From contig CP070697.1 of NCBI GenBank assembly GCA_020353555.1, positions 6,724,371 through 6,788,370 on the forward strand: a DNA stretch of 64,000 nucleotides, given 5' to 3'. This document shows positions 52,953 to 60,374 of the stretch, one piece after another. How positions within the stretch are numbered: the stretch's first letter is position 1; every line of letters begins with the position of its first letter. The position numbers were made by a program, and so were the translations under genes. The notes below the pieces were generated by a model. That model saw only the letters and a list, made by a program, of their open reading frames with translations. It had not been told where the DNA came from and ran no database searches. This stretch comes from Desulfobacterales bacterium (GTDB taxonomy: Bacteria > Desulfobacterota > Desulfobacteria > Desulfobacterales > G020353555).

Positions 52953-54227
52953 TCAGCTCCGGCCGGCCGCGGGCGGATGATGAAAGCCAAACAGCGCATC
53001 CCATTGACGATCCAGCGTATTCAGGGCTTGGGGCAAGGGCACCGGATGAACGGCGCCACTTTCTATCTGAACCAGTTGCAGCCGTTTCAGCTTGTCCAGC
53101 GCGTCGCTGATCTCAAAGTCGATCCGTACGCCGGCCTTGTGCGCTAACCAGGCCTCCGCCGTCTGATCCAGCTGCTGCCGGGTCAGGGGTCGGTCTGCCG
53201 TCAACAGGCAAAAATAGGCCAGCCAGACCTCTTTGAACTCTTCTTCCTCGGCGTCGTCGATGAGGTGGTGAAAGACGCCGGCGTTGTTGTCCAGGTTTTT
53301 GAAGTAGAGATTTTCCGTCAGGGCCTGCATGAACCGCAGTTTGCGGTTTTTGAATTTGTTGAACTGTTTGAAAAGAAAACCGGCCAGGGTTCCCAGACCG
53401 GCCCCCAGAATCACCAGGTGCTTCTTCTCCACCTCCACCGGTGAGCTGGAGAAACCAAACCAGAAGGAGATCAGGGAGCCCAAGAGGATGAAGGTGGCAC
53501 CCAGTTTGGTGACCAGCATAATAATGCCGCTCACCGCCGCCGGTACGCCGATGATCAGCTTGTCGATGGTCTTCATGCGGATCCGGCTATTGGGAAACAG
53601 CATCTCCAGATCGGCCTTGGGCACGTTGTGGAAGAGTTTGATCAAAGTGGCGCCGGGCACGAAATTGAGCTGCTTGCGTTTGCTTTTGGCAAAATAATCC
53701 GCCTCCTTGAATTTGAGAAAAACCACCACCCGCGCGTAGTTGGTAAAGGCGATGGGCCGCTTGCGCAAGCCCCACAGGGTCAATAGGGTCTCCTGGCGGA
53801 TACTCGCTCCCCGCCGGAAGAAAAGAACCTCTTCAAAATCATCGAAATCCACCTCCAGCCGAATTTTGAACAGCGACTCTTCGGCCAGGGCCTCCCGCAG
53901 ATCGTGATCGGTGATGGCCTCGTAATTGGCGGCATCCAGCAGGGCGGTCAACTCGGAAACCAACGCTTTCTGGCAGCGTTCGCGTTCCTGCGCTGACAGC
54001 GGCACTTGCGACCGGGTGTCGGCATCCGGATCATAGGGCGCATAGCTTTCCTTGAGCCGTTCCAGGCGCTGCTGGAATTGATAATGCAGCAGCGCCTGGA
54101 GCAAATGCCCCAACTGCTGCAGGCGCTCTTGGTCGGCGGTGTTCAGGGCGGCATCGGCCAGGCACAGCGCGAGCACATCACGCTTGCGCAGTCGAATAAA
54201 ACGCTGGGTGCCGGTTGTCATCGACAT
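52953..54227 (-). CDS. DUF3754/TMEM143-like membrane protein
   Basis: 424 aa with two central TM helices flanked by charged helical regions. The resemblance to the DUF3754 family is from memory and has not been verified. Confidence 0.5.
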   Translation of the reverse strand: MSMTTGTQRFIRLRKRDVLALCLADAALNTADQERLQQLGHLLQALLHYQFQQRLERLKESYAPYDPDADTRSQVPLSAQERERCQKALVSELTALLDAANYEAITDHDLREALAEESLFKIRLEVDFDDFEEVLFFRRGASIRQETLLTLWGLRKRPIAFTNYARVVVFLKFKEADYFAKSKRKQLNFVPGATLIKLFHNVPKADLEMLFPNSRIRMKTIDKLIIGVPAAVSGIIMLVTKLGATFILLGSLISFWFGFSSSPVEVEKKHLVILGAGLGTLAGFLFKQFNKFKNRKLRFMQALTENLYFKNLDNNAGVFHHLIDDAEEEEFKEVWLAYFCLLTADRPLTRQQLDQTAEAWLAHKAGVRIDFEISDALDKLKRLQLVQIESGAVHPVPLPQALNTLDRQWDALFGFHHPPAAGRS

Positions 54228-54236
54228 AATTGGATG

Positions 54237-54270
54237 GTATCAACTTAGCTGTATGAAAAATATCCCGGCC
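54237..54270 (-). repeat. Copy 3 of the conserved intergenic motif
   Basis: GTATCAACTTAGCTGTATGAAAAATATCCCGGCC, ending 10 nt upstream of the start codon of the DUF3754-like gene, which has no SD. Confidence 0.5.
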
Positions 54271-54312
54271 GACCGCTCATCGGGCAAAATTCAAAATTGG
54301 CCAAGGCTTCCG

Positions 54313-55446
54313 TTAGCGCGAAGGGGGTTGGCCCCCAAACCGGATTTCGATGATTGTGACGTCATCCTGAAGCCGAATTTCGTTAGAGAACTTGAGTAAT
54401 TCCTCCTCAAGCTGGTCCATGCGGAGTTGAGTTTGGGGGTAATCGAGATTCTTGAGGATTTCAATGAAGCCATCGACGCCCAGCTGTTCACCCAAGGCAT
54501 TGTGAATCTCAAAGGCTCCATCACTGAACAAGAGCATTGCGTCGCCGGGTTCCAACCGGGCGGTCTGTTCTTGGTAGGGAACATCTTCCACGACCCCGAA
54601 GGCCACGCCGGAAGCTTTGAGCTTCTCAACCCTCCAATTGGCCCGTATGATAAGCGGGGGCGGACCCCCCGCCCCGGTAAACCGCAACGCTCCGTTACGG
54701 GCATCAAGGACCCCGCAAACTGCCGTGGCAAAGGAGGCATCGCGGCCGACAACCCCGCCAAGCTCTTTATTCACCTCGGCGGCGAACTCTGCCGGTTTGG
54801 TTAGAAGGCGGGAATGCAAGTTCCACAGGTTGCTCAAATGCATGGTGTACAGGCCGGCCGCCACGCCGTGGCCCTCCATATCAGCCAGGAAAAATCCGTA
54901 TCGATTTTCATCGAGCTGATTGATGGCATAATAGTCACCCCCCACGATATCATAAGGCATAAAGAAGGTAGAGACGCGTAAGCGCGGGTCGTCGGGCAGC
55001 TTATGTCTGAGCGTGCTGGCCTGGATCTCTTTGGCCCGCTCAAGATCCAACAGCATGGGTGACACATCGCGAAATGTCTCCACACCACCGATAACTTCCC
55101 CGGCCTCGTTGCGGATCGGTGCCGTGGTAACTTGCATGGGGATCTTTTGGCCATCCCGGCCCCGTGCAAAAACGATCAGTGGCACGCTTGTAATGACGCC
55201 GGTAACCATGGCGCGATGCAACGGGCAATGCTCTTCACCGCACAACCTGTGTCCGTCTTTGTCTTCGTGGCAAAGAACGTCCTCCAAACAGAGACGGCCC
55301 ACCACCTCCTCCGGCCGCCATCCCGTGATACGTTCGGCGGATTTGCTCCAGAAAACAACCCGTCGTTCGCGGTCACACACGTAAACGCCGTCGCTGAGGC
55401 TATTTAAAATTACTTCCGATGAACTTAAGAGATCATTCATAGCCAC
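54313..55446 (-). CDS. PAS-domain protein phosphatase 2C (SpoIIE/RsbU-like)
   Basis: N-terminal PAS domain (LSDGVYVCDRERRVVFWSKSAERITGW) and a C-terminal PP2C domain (GGDYY..D..GHGV..LFSDG). Confidence 0.85.
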   Translation of the reverse strand: MAMNDLLSSSEVILNSLSDGVYVCDRERRVVFWSKSAERITGWRPEEVVGRLCLEDVLCHEDKDGHRLCGEEHCPLHRAMVTGVITSVPLIVFARGRDGQKIPMQVTTAPIRNEAGEVIGGVETFRDVSPMLLDLERAKEIQASTLRHKLPDDPRLRVSTFFMPYDIVGGDYYAINQLDENRYGFFLADMEGHGVAAGLYTMHLSNLWNLHSRLLTKPAEFAAEVNKELGGVVGRDASFATAVCGVLDARNGALRFTGAGGPPPLIIRANWRVEKLKASGVAFGVVEDVPYQEQTARLEPGDAMLLFSDGAFEIHNALGEQLGVDGFIEILKNLDYPQTQLRMDQLEEELLKFSNEIRLQDDVTIIEIRFGGQPPSR

Positions 55447-55831: not shown

Positions 55832-55976
55832 ATCCGATCGAGCTTGCCGATCACCGTTCGTTCAATCCGAAATCATGATCCTGCGTGATGAACTTATCCC
55901 TTACCGTCGGGTTTGCCGTTAGGACTCGTCTGGTTTTCAGCGCAAATGTCAAAAATTCACGGGCGTAAGACGTCCG

Positions 55977-56294
55977 CTACCTTAGCGTGCCCCGATAGGT
56001 GCCCGCGTGCTTTAAAGCCGCTTCCATCTCCTCAACGGTCAGGACCGTGGGGTCATAATATACCGTGTTGGTCTCTTTTGAGCCGCGGAAGCCTTTTTTC
56101 ACCCGTTGGACACCCTTCAGCCCCTCCAGGGCTGCCTGACCCACGTCATATCACCCCACATAAAAGACCACCGTGGAGATATCCGTTTTTTCGGCCTGCA
56201 AAACCGTGTATCCCGTCAATAGGCCCAGCGCGATCATGGCCGCGAAGACCAGAAATGCCGTGATCCGCGGTTTGAAGGTATTGAGATAGATCAT
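55977..56294 (-). CDS. Membrane-anchored HMA-like (ferredoxin-fold) small protein interrupted by an in-frame TGA at codon 48; candidate selenoprotein or pseudogene
   Basis: My translation is MIYLNTFKPRITAFLVFAAMIALGLLTGYTVLQAEKTDISTVVFYVG-TGA-YDVGQAALEGLKGVQRVKKGFRGSKETNTVYYDPTVLTVEEMEAALKHAGTYRGTLR. A GGAGGA RBS follows the stop of the upstream gene. A hairpin, CAGCCC-UGGAG-GGGCUG, begins 16 nt after the UGA. Confidence 0.45.
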
Positions 56295-56309
56295 CAGCCG
56301 TCCTCCTTG

Positions 56310-56972
56310 CTAGATTTTATCCAGTTCCAACCGGTGAACGTACTTCACCCAGTCCGATCCATAATAGCCCTCGGCGACGACACGCAGGGGAAAGCCATGT
56401 TTCAGCGGGAGGGTTTCCCCGTTCACGCCGTATGCCAGAAAGACCTTGTCGGTCAGGATGTCCTCGATGGGGAATCGTTCGGTTTTTTCATAGGCGCCTT
56501 CCGGCCCTGCAAAGATGCCATGGGTGACGTCCTTTTCCAGTTGCGCGCGTGTGAGCAGCTGGCCCATGGAAAGGCCTTTCCACCGACCGTGATTCGTGAA
56601 AACCCCCGGACAGATCAAGAGCACCTCCCTCTCAATGGAAGACAGGGTCAGAATTTGAGGATAGGTCAATCTGAGGGGCGTTTGAACACGGCCCGTAACC
56701 TCCAGACGCCAGGCATCGAGCTGCACCTCGTAATCCGAAATCCCCATGGTCCGAAAATCCTTCAGGGGTGTGAGCTCGAGATTCCGGGTATCCAATACGC
56801 CGGGATCTTTGTGGATCAGGCTTTCACGGTTGGTGTCCCGGGGGAGGACAATTTTAGGGGTTTTTCCGTTGCCGTAGACCGTACGGACGGCTTTGAAGAA
56901 AGGACTGAGCGAAAGGCCCATTCCGGTAAGAAATCCAAATGTGGTTTTGAGAAACTGCCGGCGTTTTTCCAT
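56310..56972 (-). CDS. Periplasmic molybdopterin-dependent oxidoreductase (sulfite-oxidase/YedY-MsrP fold) with Tat signal
   Basis: MEKRRQFLKTTF is a twin-arginine signal. The Oxidored_molyb-like core carries LICPG and GFPLRVV..GYYG..WVK. I prefer the ATG at 56972. Confidence 0.8.
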   Translation of the reverse strand: MEKRRQFLKTTFGFLTGMGLSLSPFFKAVRTVYGNGKTPKIVLPRDTNRESLIHKDPGVLDTRNLELTPLKDFRTMGISDYEVQLDAWRLEVTGRVQTPLRLTYPQILTLSSIEREVLLICPGVFTNHGRWKGLSMGQLLTRAQLEKDVTHGIFAGPEGAYEKTERFPIEDILTDKVFLAYGVNGETLPLKHGFPLRVVAEGYYGSDWVKYVHRLELDKI

Positions 56973-57121
56973 AATTTTTCTTCCTCTTCGATGATTCCAG
57001 GTTCCCGCGCTCGGGGTTTCAAACGAGCTTCCGACAAACTTTCCGTATGAGGTGCTGAGATCCGGATTTACTTCACGACCGCCAAACGGTGTCAATGCGT
57101 GCCGTCCAGAGGATTTGCCCA

Positions 57122-57811
57122 TCAATAAACCGCACGAAGCGTGATTTGGGACACCGGATAGCGCCAGTCCTGCCTGGCGGGCTCCACTTGCAGACCGTCT
57201 CCTTGCGGACCGACGCCATGGATACCAGCATGGACAAAGACATATCCCTCCGGTGGATTGTCGGCGTCATGCACGTTGGGATTATTGCAGGGTGGGCCGG
57301 GAATAAAAGCGCAGTCCTCCGAGTTGGCCTCGCTTCCCGCATCGTAGGCCGTCGCCGCCACAACCACTTTTCCTCGGGCAGGAACCTGAATACCCCGGGC
57401 GGCGAAAAAGGCGTCATTGCTCGTAACCAGCATGCCGGCCACGGAAATCAGTCTGAAAGCGCCCCGGATGGGGATCTCCACTGTCAGCGAATCGCCGGGC
57501 AGAATGAAATCGCCCACGGCCGTCTCAAAAACAGAATGCAGTTTGGCGACGGAATTGACCAGCGGCTCCGTAAGGCCGTCTTCCGCCAGGGCCGCAAGTT
57601 CCGGGCTAGCTTCTTGCCCCAATCTGAAGAGATCGAAATTCCGGGTATGACTGATCACGACCGGCGGGCTGAATACCTGGCCGCGGGTGAGATTGGTGAT
57701 GGTGATCTCATATTTTCTCCCATAGCGTTCTTGATCCGCAAAGGATACCCCGCTCGCCAAAACGAAAATCATGAGAAACGTCACTGTCAAAGCATATCTT
57801 TTGTGTCTCAT
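57122..57811 (-). CDS. Secreted spondin_N-domain protein
   Basis: Signal peptide present. ITITNLTRGQVFSPPVVISH and downstream beta-rich sequence resemble bacterial spondin N-terminal domain proteins. Strong AAGGAGG RBS. Confidence 0.6.
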   Translation of the reverse strand: MRHKRYALTVTFLMIFVLASGVSFADQERYGRKYEITITNLTRGQVFSPPVVISHTRNFDLFRLGQEASPELAALAEDGLTEPLVNSVAKLHSVFETAVGDFILPGDSLTVEIPIRGAFRLISVAGMLVTSNDAFFAARGIQVPARGKVVVAATAYDAGSEANSEDCAFIPGPPCNNPNVHDADNPPEGYVFVHAGIHGVGPQGDGLQVEPARQDWRYPVSQITLRAVY

Positions 57812-57971
57812 CTTAGTACCTCCTTTGATCTAAATGCTGCCGTTTGGATCTCAGCACGCCTCCCTCAAAACGACACCGCAACGTAACCGCCAACGTAACT
57901 TCAAAAATTCACGCGTTCATCACGAAACGCTAACGTTTCAGTCACATCAATCCGTGCAGGGCAGCAGCTCT

Positions 57972-59453
57972 TCAGACCCGGGAGGTGACAGGAAGTTGAA
58001 AGGTGAAGGTGGTACCCGCATCCAGGGCGCTGGCGACCTGGATGGACCGGCCGTGCAGTTCCAGGATTCTTTTGGTGATTGCCAGACCAAGCCCCGAATG
58101 GCCCAGCTCCGACTTGCGGCTCTTATCCAACTGATAAAACCGGTTGAAAATAGAGACAAGCTCCGCCTCCGGGATGCCGCACCCGGTATCGCTGATTTGG
58201 ACCACAATATCTTCCTTTTGCGGTGTCAGCACGAGACGGATGAACCCACTCGGGGGGGTATAGTGAATGGCATTTTCAATGAGGTTTTCCAGGACACGCT
58301 CGATCAACCCGATATCGGCACTCACGAAGGGGAGGTTTTCTTCGATATTGGTTGAGATTTCGATATTTTTTTCGCCGGCTTCCAGTTGAAATTTCTGGAC
58401 GACGTCCTGGACAAGCTCACTTAGGTTAAAGGGTTCCCGTTTCACACGGATGTCGTCCGAATCGAGTTTGGCCAGCTCCAAAAGCTCGCGCACCAATTTG
58501 CTCAGCCGCTCACAATGCCGAATGGCTGTTTCCAGATAGCGGCGTTTGTCCTCCGCTCGCAAGCTGTCTTCTTTCAGGAGCAGTGTTTCAATGTAGCCCT
58601 GCAAAGTCGCCAAAGGCGTACGCAAATCATGGGAAACATTGGCGATCAGTTCGCGACGGAGTGCATCGGACTTCTGCAATTTCCCCATCTGGTCTTCGAT
58701 GCGCTCCGCCATCTCGCGGAAGGTCAAACCCAGCCGGTCGATTTCATCTGCCCCATGTCTGCGCCGCTTGACCGGGAAGTCGATCTGCTTCGGAGCGGCG
58801 CCTCTTCTAAAGGCGTCCATGGCATTGGCGAGCCGCTTCAGCCTTCCGGTCAGCGACGCAAATAATACCAACCCGGCGATCAAGGCAAAAAAAAGGCTCG
58901 CGAAAATCATCCAGGCACTTAATTGGAGAATGTAGCTCCCCTTGATTTTCTGCACGACGTTGTCGTAAGTTTCGCCGCCTAAAATCACATAAAGATAGCC
59001 CTGCAAGGGACCTTGCTCAGGAATCCGCGCAACCGTGAAGACTTTTTTGCCCCGGGGGTTCCGGGGGTCATCCCCTCGGAGCTGAATGGTCGCATGCCCA
59101 GCGAGCCATTTCTCCAGCGGTCCCAAATTCACCCTTTTGCGCTTGATCTTGCCGGGGGCGGCTGAATACGCCAGAATGTTGCCCTCCGGGTCCAGGAGGT
59201 AGATCTCGATACTTGGATTGATCACCATGAGCATGTGGAAGATCTCCTCAAGGGCCTCCTCATTAACATGGTTTTGCTCCAGGAGAAGCTTTTCGGCGAC
59301 AATCTGCTCCGCCAATTTACTGTTGAGCCTTTGATTCACCTCCTGCTGGTACATCGCGGTGGAAAACAGGGTCACCACCACAAATGACAGCCCCACCAGG
59401 CAAAACAAGCCGGTCAACACGGCGGCCAATTTTGAATACAGGGAGCTAAACAT
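57972..59453 (-). CDS. Sensor histidine kinase (2 TM periplasmic sensor, HAMP, HisKA, HATPase_c)
   Basis: H-box SHDLRTPLATLQGY, plus N, G1 and G2 boxes (DTGCGI, GLGLAI). Confidence 0.9.
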   Translation of the reverse strand: MFSSLYSKLAAVLTGLFCLVGLSFVVVTLFSTAMYQQEVNQRLNSKLAEQIVAEKLLLEQNHVNEEALEEIFHMLMVINPSIEIYLLDPEGNILAYSAAPGKIKRKRVNLGPLEKWLAGHATIQLRGDDPRNPRGKKVFTVARIPEQGPLQGYLYVILGGETYDNVVQKIKGSYILQLSAWMIFASLFFALIAGLVLFASLTGRLKRLANAMDAFRRGAAPKQIDFPVKRRRHGADEIDRLGLTFREMAERIEDQMGKLQKSDALRRELIANVSHDLRTPLATLQGYIETLLLKEDSLRAEDKRRYLETAIRHCERLSKLVRELLELAKLDSDDIRVKREPFNLSELVQDVVQKFQLEAGEKNIEISTNIEENLPFVSADIGLIERVLENLIENAIHYTPPSGFIRLVLTPQKEDIVVQISDTGCGIPEAELVSIFNRFYQLDKSRKSELGHSGLGLAITKRILELHGRSIQVASALDAGTTFTFQLPVTSRV

Positions 59454-59468: not shown

Positions 59469-60176
59469 CTAAGGCTCAAACTCCGCAAACTTATAGCCCA
59501 CACCCCAGACGGTAAGGATATAGCGTGGTTGCGCCGGGTTTTTTTCGATCTTGGCTCGCAGGCGGTTTATGTGTGAGTTCACGGTATGTTCATAGCCATC
59601 GTGTCCGTACCCCCACACCGCGTCCAACAGCTGGGCCCGCGTAAAAACCCGGCCGGCGTGTCGGGCGAAATACAGGAGCAAATCGAATTCTTTGGCCGTC
59701 AGATCGACGGCCGTGCCCGCGAGATCCACCGCGCGCCTGGCCGGATCGATGACCAGGTTCCCGGCACGTATCGGCGCCTGGGGATTGATTGGCTGGTCCG
59801 ACTTCAATTCATCGATGCGCCGGAAAATGGCTTTCACCCGCGCCATGAGTTCCCTGATACTGAACGGCTTGGTGACGTAGTCATCGGCTCCCATTTCAAG
59901 CCCCAGCACGCGATCCAATTCCGCCGATTTGGAGGTCAGCATCAGAATGGGCGTGTAGCCGGGTTGGGTGCGTATCCGGCGACAGATTTCCAGCCCGTCC
60001 AGGCCGGGCAGCATGAGGTCGAGAAGGATGAGGTCGTAATCTTTCGATTTGAATTTGGCAAAACCCTCATGGCCATCGAACGCCAAATCAACTTCATAGG
60101 AAAGATCGCGGAGATGAAGGTCCAAGAGCTGGGCCAGGTCCTTGTTGTCTTCGATAACCAGAATTTTCCGTGACAT
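59469..60176 (-). CDS. OmpR/PhoB-family response regulator
   Basis: The receiver starts at MSRKILVIEDN with ..DLILLDLMLPG, and a winged-helix C-terminus (TVWGVGYKF) is present. I prefer the ATG at 60176 to the ORF-track start at 60323. Confidence 0.9.
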   Translation of the reverse strand: MSRKILVIEDNKDLAQLLDLHLRDLSYEVDLAFDGHEGFAKFKSKDYDLILLDLMLPGLDGLEICRRIRTQPGYTPILMLTSKSAELDRVLGLEMGADDYVTKPFSIRELMARVKAIFRRIDELKSDQPINPQAPIRAGNLVIDPARRAVDLAGTAVDLTAKEFDLLLYFARHAGRVFTRAQLLDAVWGYGHDGYEHTVNSHINRLRAKIEKNPAQPRYILTVWGVGYKFAEFEP

Positions 60177-60300
60177 GCGGTCACACCTTGCGGGGCCGGT
60201 GTTTCTGTACCCCAATCGAGTCAAGCTCGGTTGGGATCGCCCGTTGTTCGTTGTCGGTTGTGGGTTGACCGCCGGAGGGAACGGATCGCATTTTACATTG

Positions 60301-60374
60301 AACCCAGCGTTGCCAATCCGCAAAACATTCGTTTATACGACCACGATCAACCGACGACGAGCCACAACCCATTG
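60301..60374 (+). repeat. 74-nt direct repeat, copy 1
   Basis: 59 of 74 positions are identical (ungapped) to 60717-60790. The shared blocks are AACCC.GCGTTG.CAATCCGCA.AACAT and ACAACCCATTG. Confidence 0.6.

Follow-up and report, generated by a model that had tools for sequence, protein, structure and literature searches.

An in-frame UGA in a small HMA-like protein of a Desulfobacterales bacterium: a probable selenoprotein family encoded near methionine sulfoxide reductase genes

Introduction

More than 110 prokaryotic selenoprotein families with models are listed in a 2026 review (PMC13188914), and BSepDB lists 111. In the bacterial selenocysteine insertion sequence (bSECIS) model given there, the UGA codon for selenocysteine (Sec) is followed by a hairpin with a loop of 3-9 nt and an upper stem of 4-16 bp, at a UGA-to-loop distance of 16-37 nt and with a minimum free energy (MFE) not exceeding -7.5 kcal/mol; the loop has a G within its first two positions and usually reads N1-G-[G/U]-N-N2 (PMC13188914). 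The methionine sulfoxide reductase MsrA occurs in Sec and Cys forms (PMC13188914), and the known periplasmic defences against methionine oxidation include the YedY/MrpX hypochlorite system (PMC4436054), MsrPQ (PMC12525009) and periplasmic MsrAB (PMC9404787). Here we describe a gene from a Desulfobacterales bacterium that is interrupted by a TGA at codon 48 and very probably encodes a small selenoprotein. It lies in a stretch of 64,000 nt (assembly GCA_020353555.1, contig CP070697.1, positions 6,724,371 to 6,788,370 of the forward strand), which is called the window below and to which all plain coordinates refer.

Gene structure and conservation of the TGA codon

The gene and its parts are arranged as follows.

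55977..56294, minus strand: selenoprotein gene, 105 codons including Sec48, with ATG at 56294-56292 and TAG at 55979-55977
56301..56306, minus strand: Shine-Dalgarno sequence GGAGGA, 6 nt 5' of the ATG, read from the sequence
56151..56153, minus strand: UGA codon 48, very probably read as selenocysteine (aligned-codon counts in 81 DNA sequences)
56193..56294, minus strand: residues 1-34, predicted signal peptide or signal anchor (K8, R10, a 17-residue hydrophobic core, VLQA/E)
55980..56192, minus strand: residues 35-105, predicted beta-alpha-beta-beta-alpha-beta HMA-like domain with Sec48 (AlphaFold2, Foldseek, alignment)

The frame consists of 47 sense codons, the TGA (56153-56151) and 57 further codons in frame up to the TAG; in the open reading frame (ORF) listing of the window, the two halves appear as separate ORFs of 47 aa and 55 aa. 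An initial annotation, made from the sequence alone, had proposed this arrangement, and reading of the minus strand reproduced all its positions, namely those of the ATG, the GGAGGA, the TGA, the 47 and 57 codons, the stop of the molybdopterin oxidoreductase gene upstream and the stem of a hairpin downstream of the UGA.

A search with the read-through protein identified 36 homologues of about 100 aa (E<=1e-13), and a genomic scan with one genome per species identified 78 loci. Codons were compared over 81 distinct homologous DNA sequences: at the position of codon 48, 69 of them have TGA, seven TGT, three TGC, one GGA, one CGA and none TGG. Alignment with homologues had been suggested as a check of the Sec assignment, and it showed Sec (TGA) or Cys at this position in 79 of the 81 DNA sequences and never a Trp codon. 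Overall, about 85% of the family are Sec members and about 12% are Cys members, the Cys-form orthologues being single uninterrupted ORFs. The TGA-bearing sequences share 45-65% protein identity, and an identity of 50-65% holds in frame on either side of the TGA; the two halves are in the same frame without spacing variation in all 69 TGA sequences; and the invariant residues after the UGA (E74, T77, V78, Y80, L94 and T99) demonstrate in-frame conservation downstream.

Most carriers belong to Nitrospirota (Thermodesulfovibrionia) or Desulfobacterota, and the Olavius Delta-1 symbiont, which is rich in selenoproteins, is among them; Planctomycetota, Leptospirales and Sphingobacteriales contribute one metagenome-assembled genome (MAG) each. 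Sec and Cys paralogues were found within one genome in two cases: L036 and L056, which lie on the same contig (DATJAP010000001.1), and L063 and L066, which come from the same MAG. One genome also carries two Sec copies 8 kb apart (L063:1922 and L063:10124).

Four homologues deviate from this pattern. The two with a sense codon other than Cys (GGA at L003:216-218 and CGA at L031:6302-6304) are one base from TGA and retain the hairpin described below (free energy, dG, -9.5 and -4.7, respectively), and L031 also carries Asp50 -> Gly; they represent either recent Sec losses or sequencing errors. Two further homologues look damaged: L079:1112-1323 requires a frameshift to join the halves, and L080:10081-10255 diverges after 'YYDP' and ends early.

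In protein databases the Sec column looks different. An exhaustive profile search of 1.84 billion protein representatives yielded 222 clusters. Among the best 150 of the 222, all are <=170 aa and none has a domain fusion, while more than 20 of these listed clusters start exactly after the Sec position, which is a hallmark of mis-called selenoproteins. Full-length database entries have W (43), C (17), G (1) or V (1) at the Sec column, and in the alignment of the 36 database homologues most sequences have W there, four have C and one has G. For five W entries the DNA was checked (L001:1043-1045, L002:389-391 and the aligned TGA in L088, L089 and L090; P0001, P0004, P0010, P0021 and P0028): all five have TGA, and none yields the database protein when translated with code 11. 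The C entries correspond to a genuine TGC in DNA and the G entry to a genuine GGA. The W at the Sec column is an artefact of gene callers that pick code 4 on short metagenomic contigs. A homologue with Trp at this position had been named in the initial annotation as evidence against Sec, and the protein databases would falsely provide it because UGA was translated with code 4.

The hairpin downstream of the UGA

Immediately 3' of the UGA the following element was found.

56118..56134, minus strand: candidate SECIS hairpin, with stem CAGCCC (56134-56129), loop UGGAG (56128-56124) and stem GGGCUG (56123-56118)

The hairpin starts 16 nt past the UGA and has a 6-bp stem, and the UGA-to-loop distance is 22 nt. 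Its dG is -9.5 kcal/mol, the MFE of nt 17-40 is -11.7, and the loop fits N1-G-G-N-N2 with a U.G pair, so that all values lie within the published bSECIS ranges. Among the 69 Sec loci, the MFE of nt 17-40 reaches -7.5 kcal/mol in 58 and the loop reads UGGNN in 68, as compared with one of the 10 Cys loci; the median hairpin dG is -7.4 in Sec loci vs +0.4 in Cys loci.

The hairpin overlaps codons of the conserved residues A-L-x-G-L, and the codon usage of the stem was therefore compared with that of the same amino acids elsewhere in the same genes.

Stem codon Ala GCC: 97% in the 69 Sec sequences; 32% for Ala elsewhere in the same genes
Stem codon Leu CTG: 97% in the 69 Sec sequences; 25% for Leu elsewhere in the same genes
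Stem codon Gly GGG: 91% in the 69 Sec sequences; 13% for Gly elsewhere in the same genes

This freezing of synonymous sites is highly significant (Fisher P 1e-25 to 1e-37), whereas in Sec loci the adjoining codons for Tyr, Asp, Val and Lys are completely random at their synonymous sites; because of this randomisation, shared ancestry is not the cause of the frozen stem codons. In the 10 Cys loci the stem codons GCC and CTG are relaxed (P 0.007 and 0.0002, respectively). Explicit counts show that the six pairs are formed in 87% of cases and the inner four in 91-100%, while a register slid by one base gives 55%. In two loci, compensatory double changes keep the pairing at the cost of the conserved Gly: L070 (GCU...GAG, Gly->Glu) and L074 (UUG...AGG, Gly->Arg). 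These patterns indicate that the hairpin is under nucleotide-level selection beyond the protein constraint. Together with the published bSECIS ranges, the frozen synonymous sites of the Sec loci bear out the earlier view that the stem is compatible with a bacterial SECIS.

The sole TGA-bearing homologue without a hairpin at the conserved position is L076:985-1038 (AUC UUA GAA GGG CUC, loop UAGAA, dG +3.6), which may have an atypical SECIS or be a decaying copy.

Selenocysteine and other readings of the TGA

On these comparative data we consider it very probable that the TGA at 56153-56151 is a genuine Sec codon of a true selenoprotein. The initial suggestion of a candidate selenoprotein thus gains the UGA in 69 of the 81 sequences, Cys orthologues in 10 sequences and 17 database clusters, and the in-frame conservation. 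Joint retention of the TGA, the frame and the hairpin over 69 independent sequences goes far beyond coincidence. During translation, the mRNA just 3' of the UGA would fold into the short hairpin (56134-56118, loop UGGAG), which would recruit SelB with Sec-tRNA(Sec) to the UGA according to the established bacterial mechanism; Sec would be inserted at position 48, and translation would proceed to the TAG at 55977, yielding a 105-residue pre-protein. Since TGA is the commonest ordinary stop in the window, where it ends 18 of the 39 long non-overlapping ORFs, read-through at codon 48 would be site-specific recoding. A scan of the window for other genes with one TGA read through retrieved spurious frames and true stops only.

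Related loci contain established selenoprotein genes with a TGA of their own: Sec-MsrA in five and Sec-YHS in two. The former are of the cytoplasmic type with the motif 'ALG-U-FWG' (L012, minus strand, 3709; L032, minus, 15525; L040, plus, 12960; L051, minus, 13761; L059, minus, 19261), and the latter have the motif 'GGY-U-AY' (L026, plus, 10625; L076, plus, 1480). The presence of these known selenoprotein types, each with an in-frame TGA, shows that the genomes concerned decode Sec.

Several observations weigh against Sec decoding at this site. The Sec-decoding capacity of the source organism is assumed from its relatives: ARAGORN detected no tRNA, tRNA-Sec included, in the window, and a tblastn search of the window and of 85 loci with the E. 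coli proteins SelA, SelB and SelD gave no match, a result that is uninformative. Classical covariation is thin, the stem being short (4-6 bp) and near-invariant, with three pairs showing changes on both sides (7 cells). Given the 69 Sec sequences, RNAalifold missed the hairpin and proposed a different helix, weak and 3 bp long (-2.96 kcal/mol). Folding of 60 nt of the window sequence gave an ordinary z-score (-1.57). The structural evidence was taken from the explicit pair counts and the synonymous-site statistics in place of RNAalifold. A search of the whole window against Rfam at gathering thresholds gave no match; we know of no bacterial SECIS model in Rfam.

The initial annotation had offered a fresh nonsense mutation as its alternative, in which an ordinary HMA-like gene was cut short when TGC, TGT or TGG recently became TGA. 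Each of these codons is indeed one base away from TGA, and Sec machinery is missing within the window. This reading is nevertheless very improbable: the TGA is the majority and ancestral state, present in 69 independent sequences from several phyla with the downstream frame and residues intact, TGG occurs in no homologue, and the nucleotide constraint just downstream is specific to the TGA-bearing loci.

No more credible is a pair of small genes, a 47-residue membrane peptide ending at the TGA and a 55-residue protein restarting at GTG 56144. Exactly these two ORFs appear in the ORF listing, and in the more than 20 database clusters mentioned above the downstream half is emitted as a protein. 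Neither half, however, is a folding unit, as the AlphaFold2 domain described below spans the TGA with beta1 before and alpha1 after it, the Cys orthologues are uninterrupted, and the halves never leave their common frame and spacing in the 69 sequences. The view of the initial annotation that the TGA splits one beta-alpha-beta-beta-alpha-beta domain, of which neither half makes sense alone, is in line with the same model.

Weakest of all is the idea that TGA is a sense codon genome-wide (Trp under code 4 or Gly under code 25), which would account for the 43 database homologues with W and the one with G at the Sec column and is ruled out by the TGA found in the DNA of all five W entries checked, with code 4 applied to short contigs, by the use of TGA as a stop in the window and by the real GGA codon of the single G entry. 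Reassignment of TGA is not known from the carrier lineages Nitrospirota and Desulfobacterota.

Export signal, fold and conserved residues

AlphaFold2 with a 37-sequence alignment gave block-mean values of the predicted local distance difference test (pLDDT) of 92-98 over residues 40-105. The modelled elements are a helix at residues 9-33, with low pLDDT, followed by E40-46 (beta1), H50-57 (alpha1), E62-70 (beta2), E73-80 (beta3), H87-97 (alpha2) and E100-104 (beta4). Sec48 lies where helix 1 begins, in the beta1-alpha1 loop. The N-terminal segment had been taken for a transmembrane anchor; it is indeed hydrophobic, but permanent anchoring is doubtful, as the segment is closed by an A-x-A-like site (VLQA/EK in the window; VHA/D, SFA/Q and AYA/D in homologues). 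It may be a cleaved signal peptide instead of a membrane anchor, and the protein is probably exported to the periplasm, where the mature part would be a ferredoxin-like domain of about 70 residues.

The invariant residues of the clean alignment (A3) are F44, V46, U48, G52, L56, G61, G68, E74, T77, V78, Y80, L94 and T99. The conserved polar residues Tyr49, Asp50, Glu74, Asn76, Thr99 and Tyr100 would lie in loops at the Sec end of the domain, judging from the fold topology. Each member has a single U or C only: the GMxCxxC motif is absent, and the residue three before Sec is Y, F, T, A or I, never Cys.

Foldseek against the Protein Data Bank (PDB) ranked HMA domains first (the metal-binding domain of ATP7B, MerP, CopZ and CCS), with target TM scores of 0.7-0.79 and a root-mean-square deviation of about 2 A; the top 20 are nearly all HMA domains, and MsrA appears at rank 47. 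A PDB profile search with the mature-domain part of alignment A3 found MerP (E 0.0014), ATP7A and CopA, and MsrA more weakly (0.39). By ungapped extrapolation of the MerP alignment, Sec48 would correspond to MerP Cys17, the second Cys of CxxC. The HMA-like fold with the UGA in the loop of the reactive Cys, as first proposed, therefore agrees with the Foldseek matches and the position of Sec48.

Pfam counts were made with alignment A3, as an earlier alignment (A1) carried the artefactual W at the Sec column. Among 46 diverse members, Pfam HMA (PF00403) is touched by two (E<0.1), neither above the gathering threshold, and PMSR (PF01625), the MsrA family, by 18 (E<0.1, best E 3e-4). The window protein itself has no hit to PF00403 at E<=1 and scores 17.5-19.1 bits against PF01625, below its 23.7-bit gathering threshold. 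The weak NCBIfam matches among the same 46 members are to NF041383 (46, confined to model positions 146-204), NF041115 (46), CopZ (41), MerP (16) and MsrB/A (13); the best E values are 1e-9 for NF041115 and 2.5e-10 for NF041383, and no score comes near the curated cutoff.

An hhalign comparison of the family with the MsrA domains from the same loci gave a probability of 95% (P 2.9e-8). It places Sec48 on the catalytic Cys, Glu74 on the MsrA Glu and 'YDP..IT' on 'YDP..IS', with a 17-residue deletion, and ends at MsrA column 74 of 164. No HMA domains, which would have supplied a matched control profile for this figure, and no VPGUxxT proteins or fusions were found in the fetched locus DNA. From these comparisons, the family thus appears to be a minimal ferredoxin-like module of the HMA-like superfamily with an MsrA-like single-nucleophile layout.

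Gene neighbourhood

In the window, the selenoprotein gene is preceded by four co-oriented genes.

56310..57125, minus strand: molybdopterin oxidoreductase (Mo-oxidoreductase), co-oriented and upstream (PF00174 at 2.2e-29)
57122..57811, minus strand: secreted spondin-domain protein, first gene of a probable three-gene unit (NF038123 at 3.2e-41, above cutoff)
57972..59453, minus strand: periplasm-sensing histidine kinase, immediately upstream of the three-gene unit
59469..60323, minus strand: OmpR-type response regulator, preceding the histidine kinase

The gap between the TAG stop of the Mo-oxidoreductase and the ATG of the selenoprotein gene is 15 nt, and the spondin gene, the Mo-oxidoreductase and the selenoprotein gene form a probable three-gene unit. 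The Mo-oxidoreductase carries the twin-arginine signal RRQFLK and one domain, which has the SUOX fold; the true start of the gene is probably the ATG at 56972. Against NCBIfam its sole near-full-length match is MsrP (37.8 bits, cutoff 207), and it is not an MsrP equivalog. The two-component pair is generic, passing no equivalog cutoff; the sole full-length match of the kinase is the CusS/HprS-type subfamily TIGR01386 (188 bits vs cutoff 292).

For the family as a whole, ORFs within 4.5 kb of each of the 81 sites were clustered, and sites with >=2.5 kb on both sides were regarded as well-flanked (57 sites). The following families recur.

MsrA/MsrB (PF01625 + PF01641): 42 of 81 sites, usually directly downstream or upstream
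Mo-oxidoreductase: 24 of 81 sites, usually directly upstream, as in the window
YHS-domain (seleno)proteins (NF041384 above cutoff): 11 of 81 sites
Secreted proteins with 20-33% Met: about 11 of 81 sites
Pair of a VTT-domain protein and a MerA/RclA-like flavoprotein: about 10 of 81 sites
Spondin-domain protein: 5 of 81 sites

An Msr-type gene (MsrA/MsrB or the MsrP-like Mo-oxidoreductase) is nearby at 45 of the 57 well-flanked sites (79%), and at 33 of them (58%) such a gene is the immediate neighbour on the same strand. At 16 Sec loci the gene immediately upstream of the small one is of the Mo-oxidoreductase family, and nine of the ten Cys forms lie about 20 nt upstream of msrAB. The periplasmic MsrA copies adjoining the small gene use Cys ('GGCFWC'). 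Two-component genes also recur near the family. This theme matches, by analogy, the known periplasmic defences against methionine oxidation.

Some neighbours deserve separate mention. In the Cys subclade with 'CYDEGK...ETDTVYYDP', msrAB always follows. The Met-rich secreted proteins (for example, L027:10920-11381 and L039:10927-11388; also in L018, L036, L059, L061 and L063) contain repeats like MMKDGEMMM, have no Pfam match and resemble the MrpX peptide of the YedY/MrpX hypochlorite-scavenging system. In L012, L013, L014, L020, L039, L041, L042, L077 and others, the gene for a VTT/DedA-like membrane protein precedes one for a MerA/RclA-like pyridine-nucleotide-disulfide oxidoreductase, and this pair passes no NCBIfam equivalog cutoff.

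Downstream of the selenoprotein gene in the window, the minus strand (52953-55446) encodes a PAS-SpoIIE (PP2C-type) phosphatase at 54313-55446 and, at 52953-54227, a membrane protein with DUF3754. An intrinsic terminator 3' of the selenoprotein gene has no support (z +0.76). The exact 13-mer CGTGAATTTTTGA occurs twice in the window, on the minus strand (55949-55961 and 57901-57913), where 0.1 occurrences are expected by chance. The first copy is just past the selenoprotein gene and the second is in the gap that separates the kinase gene from the spondin gene, where it overlaps a terminator-like hairpin, and the pair brackets the three-gene unit; the 13-mer may be the tail of a terminator or a site to which a regulator binds.

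Redox repair or metal handling

Taken as a whole, Sec recoding combined with an Msr-linked redox role is the best explanation of the data, and we hold it with considerable confidence. The role itself is a more tentative matter. The small selenoprotein is plausibly, though short of probably, a redox-active (seleno)thiol component of methionine-sulfoxide repair in the envelope, as suggested by its predicted co-transcription with an MsrP-like enzyme, the adjacency to msrAB and the alignment of Sec48 and Glu74 with MsrA. In the window, the gene would be co-transcribed with the MsrP-like molybdoenzyme, which is exported by the twin-arginine translocation (TAT) pathway. The protein could itself be a minimal MsrA-like module that reduces sulfoxides directly via a selenenic acid; alternatively, it could be a redox partner or recycler for the adjacent reductase. 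We also considered that the Mo-enzyme takes electrons from the small protein instead of MsrQ and judged this unlikely, a lone selenol being no one-electron carrier.

Four points weigh against such a role. The fold and profile searches overall favour a metal-binding HMA domain over MsrA; a lone Sec cannot alone complete a two-electron disulfide reduction; the YHS-domain and MerA-like neighbours fit a metal role equally well; and no CcdA/DsbD or thioredoxin-like family, which could mark a periplasmic reductant pathway, recurs in the clustered neighbourhoods.

The alternative, which we regard as rather unlikely, is a genuine selenoprotein that handles metals: a periplasmic MerP/CopZ-like chaperone whose selenolate would be the ligand of a soft metal (Cu(I), Hg(II) or Ag(I)). 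It would probably act as a dimer or with Cys or Met of a partner, and would be co-regulated with Msr as metal stress oxidises envelope methionines. The structural matches support it, since the best of them are HMA domains (ATP7B, MerP, CopZ) and MerP is the best PDB profile, as do the weak matches of all 46 members to NF041115 ('UxxU metal-binding (seleno)protein') and of 41 to CopZ, and some Cys forms are labelled 'copper chaperone CopZ' by JGI. Binding of metals or metal-derived molecules accounts for about 70% of the predicted interactions of this kind among selenoprotein families (PMC13188914), which is also in its favour. The neighbourhoods contribute YHS-domain proteins at 11 loci, Met-rich proteins at about 11 and the MerA-like flavoprotein at about 10.

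The active site itself speaks against metal handling: the CxxC pair is absent, with Cys at its first position in no member, the Pfam HMA matches (two of 46) pass no cutoff, and Asp, Glu, Asn and Tyr, which are conserved near Sec, are hard or polar residues and do not resemble a soft-metal site. In the clustered neighbourhoods, no copper, mercury or other metal transporter, P1B-ATPase, RND efflux pump or multicopper-oxidase family recurs, as against Msr-type genes at 79% of the well-flanked sites. The sole full-length match of the kinase is to a heavy-metal-sensor subfamily, which would suit a metal role, but it is below cutoff, and this CusS/HprS-type subfamily also includes HprS, which responds to hypochlorous acid. 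Of the HMA parallel that had been drawn initially, the fold stands; the family has a single reactive residue and no CxxC pair, and the genomic associations favour methionine-sulfoxide repair over metal trafficking.

A bolder form of the repair hypothesis, which we think unlikely, makes the family an unrecognised extracytoplasmic component of methionine-sulfoxide repair in anaerobes, either the smallest known sulfoxide reductase (a 'mini-MsrA' that would act via a selenenic acid) or a dedicated periplasmic redox partner. If true, a protein of about 70 residues with a single Sec would be a 'mini-MsrA', or would stand in for the thioredoxin domain or MsrQ and serve MsrAB and MsrP-like enzymes, and the HMA and MsrA branches of the ferredoxin-like fold would be connected. 

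For several bacteria it is not settled which donors supply periplasmic Msr enzymes with electrons under physiological conditions. Through its tight linkage to MsrAB of the periplasm and to MsrP-like enzymes, the family is a concrete candidate, open to testing, for a component still missing from methionine repair in the envelope.

Novelty and comparison with known systems

The small family passes no cutoff of an NCBIfam (release 20, June 2026) or Pfam model, was not found in the family list of the 2026 review, and its motifs are absent from the deep-Sep supplements. Publicly its members are named 'hypothetical protein' or 'copper chaperone CopZ', or the gene is split in two. Under the name 'MerP', the Global Ocean Sampling (GOS) survey lists a selenoprotein that has two sequences and lacks Cys homologues (PMC2398784). 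It may be the present family; the text gives no sequences for a comparison. Apparently, this is an uncatalogued selenoprotein family that uses the standard mechanism. Recoding of UGA to Sec through a SECIS hairpin is textbook knowledge, and one more family is an incremental addition. Two aspects are of wider interest. The SECIS would be a clean case of an RNA signal embedded in codons of conserved residues, with the pairing kept at the cost of a conserved Gly. The code-4 Trp artefact hides Sec/Cys pairs and misleads selenoprotein tests that are made from protein alignments alone, and it may affect other families.

The closest curated models are NF041115 (UxxU metal-binding (seleno)protein) and NF041383 (VPGUxxT thioredoxin-like, type 2), both selenoprotein families of the same kinds of anaerobes. 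Against NF041115 the family scores 27-29 bits (cutoff 95) and differs by its single U, with no UxxU/CxxC pair; NF041383 is matched at about positions 139-204 of 287 with 33-36 bits (cutoff 275), the family having neither VPGUxxT nor a thioredoxin domain.

With HMA domains (MerP, CopZ/Atx1 and the N-terminal domains of P1B-ATPases), the family shares the beta-alpha-beta-beta-alpha-beta fold of about 70 aa and a reactive residue in the beta1-alpha1 loop, at the N-terminus of the helix; the landmarks 'L-x-G-V', 'V-x-Y-D' and 'A-G-(T)-Y' align. It also resembles MerP in standing alone and in its predicted N-terminal signal for export. The HMA domains have GMxCxxC, whereas the family has one Sec/Cys, which would be equivalent to the second Cys, conserves polar Asp, Glu, Asn and Tyr, and has Msr neighbours. 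In the alignment with MsrA (PF01625), Sec falls on the catalytic Cys at the N-terminus of a helix and is followed by an aromatic residue. MsrA has about 150 residues and the family about 67, lacking a 17-residue loop and the whole C-terminal half, which in MsrA hold the substrate-binding tyrosines and resolving cysteines. The family motif is U-[YF]-D-V-G, as opposed to C-F-W-G in MsrA (GUFWG in its Sec form).

As to the periplasmic systems, we know of no counterpart of the small Sec protein in YedY/MrpX or MsrPQ. From MsrPQ the locus differs in its Mo-enzyme, which is not an MsrP equivalog and has no adjoining MsrQ-like haem partner. What it shares with YedY(MsrP)/MrpX and MsrPQ is a TAT-exported single-domain SUOX-fold molybdoenzyme, Met-rich secreted proteins and an envelope regulator (PMC4436054, PMC12525009).

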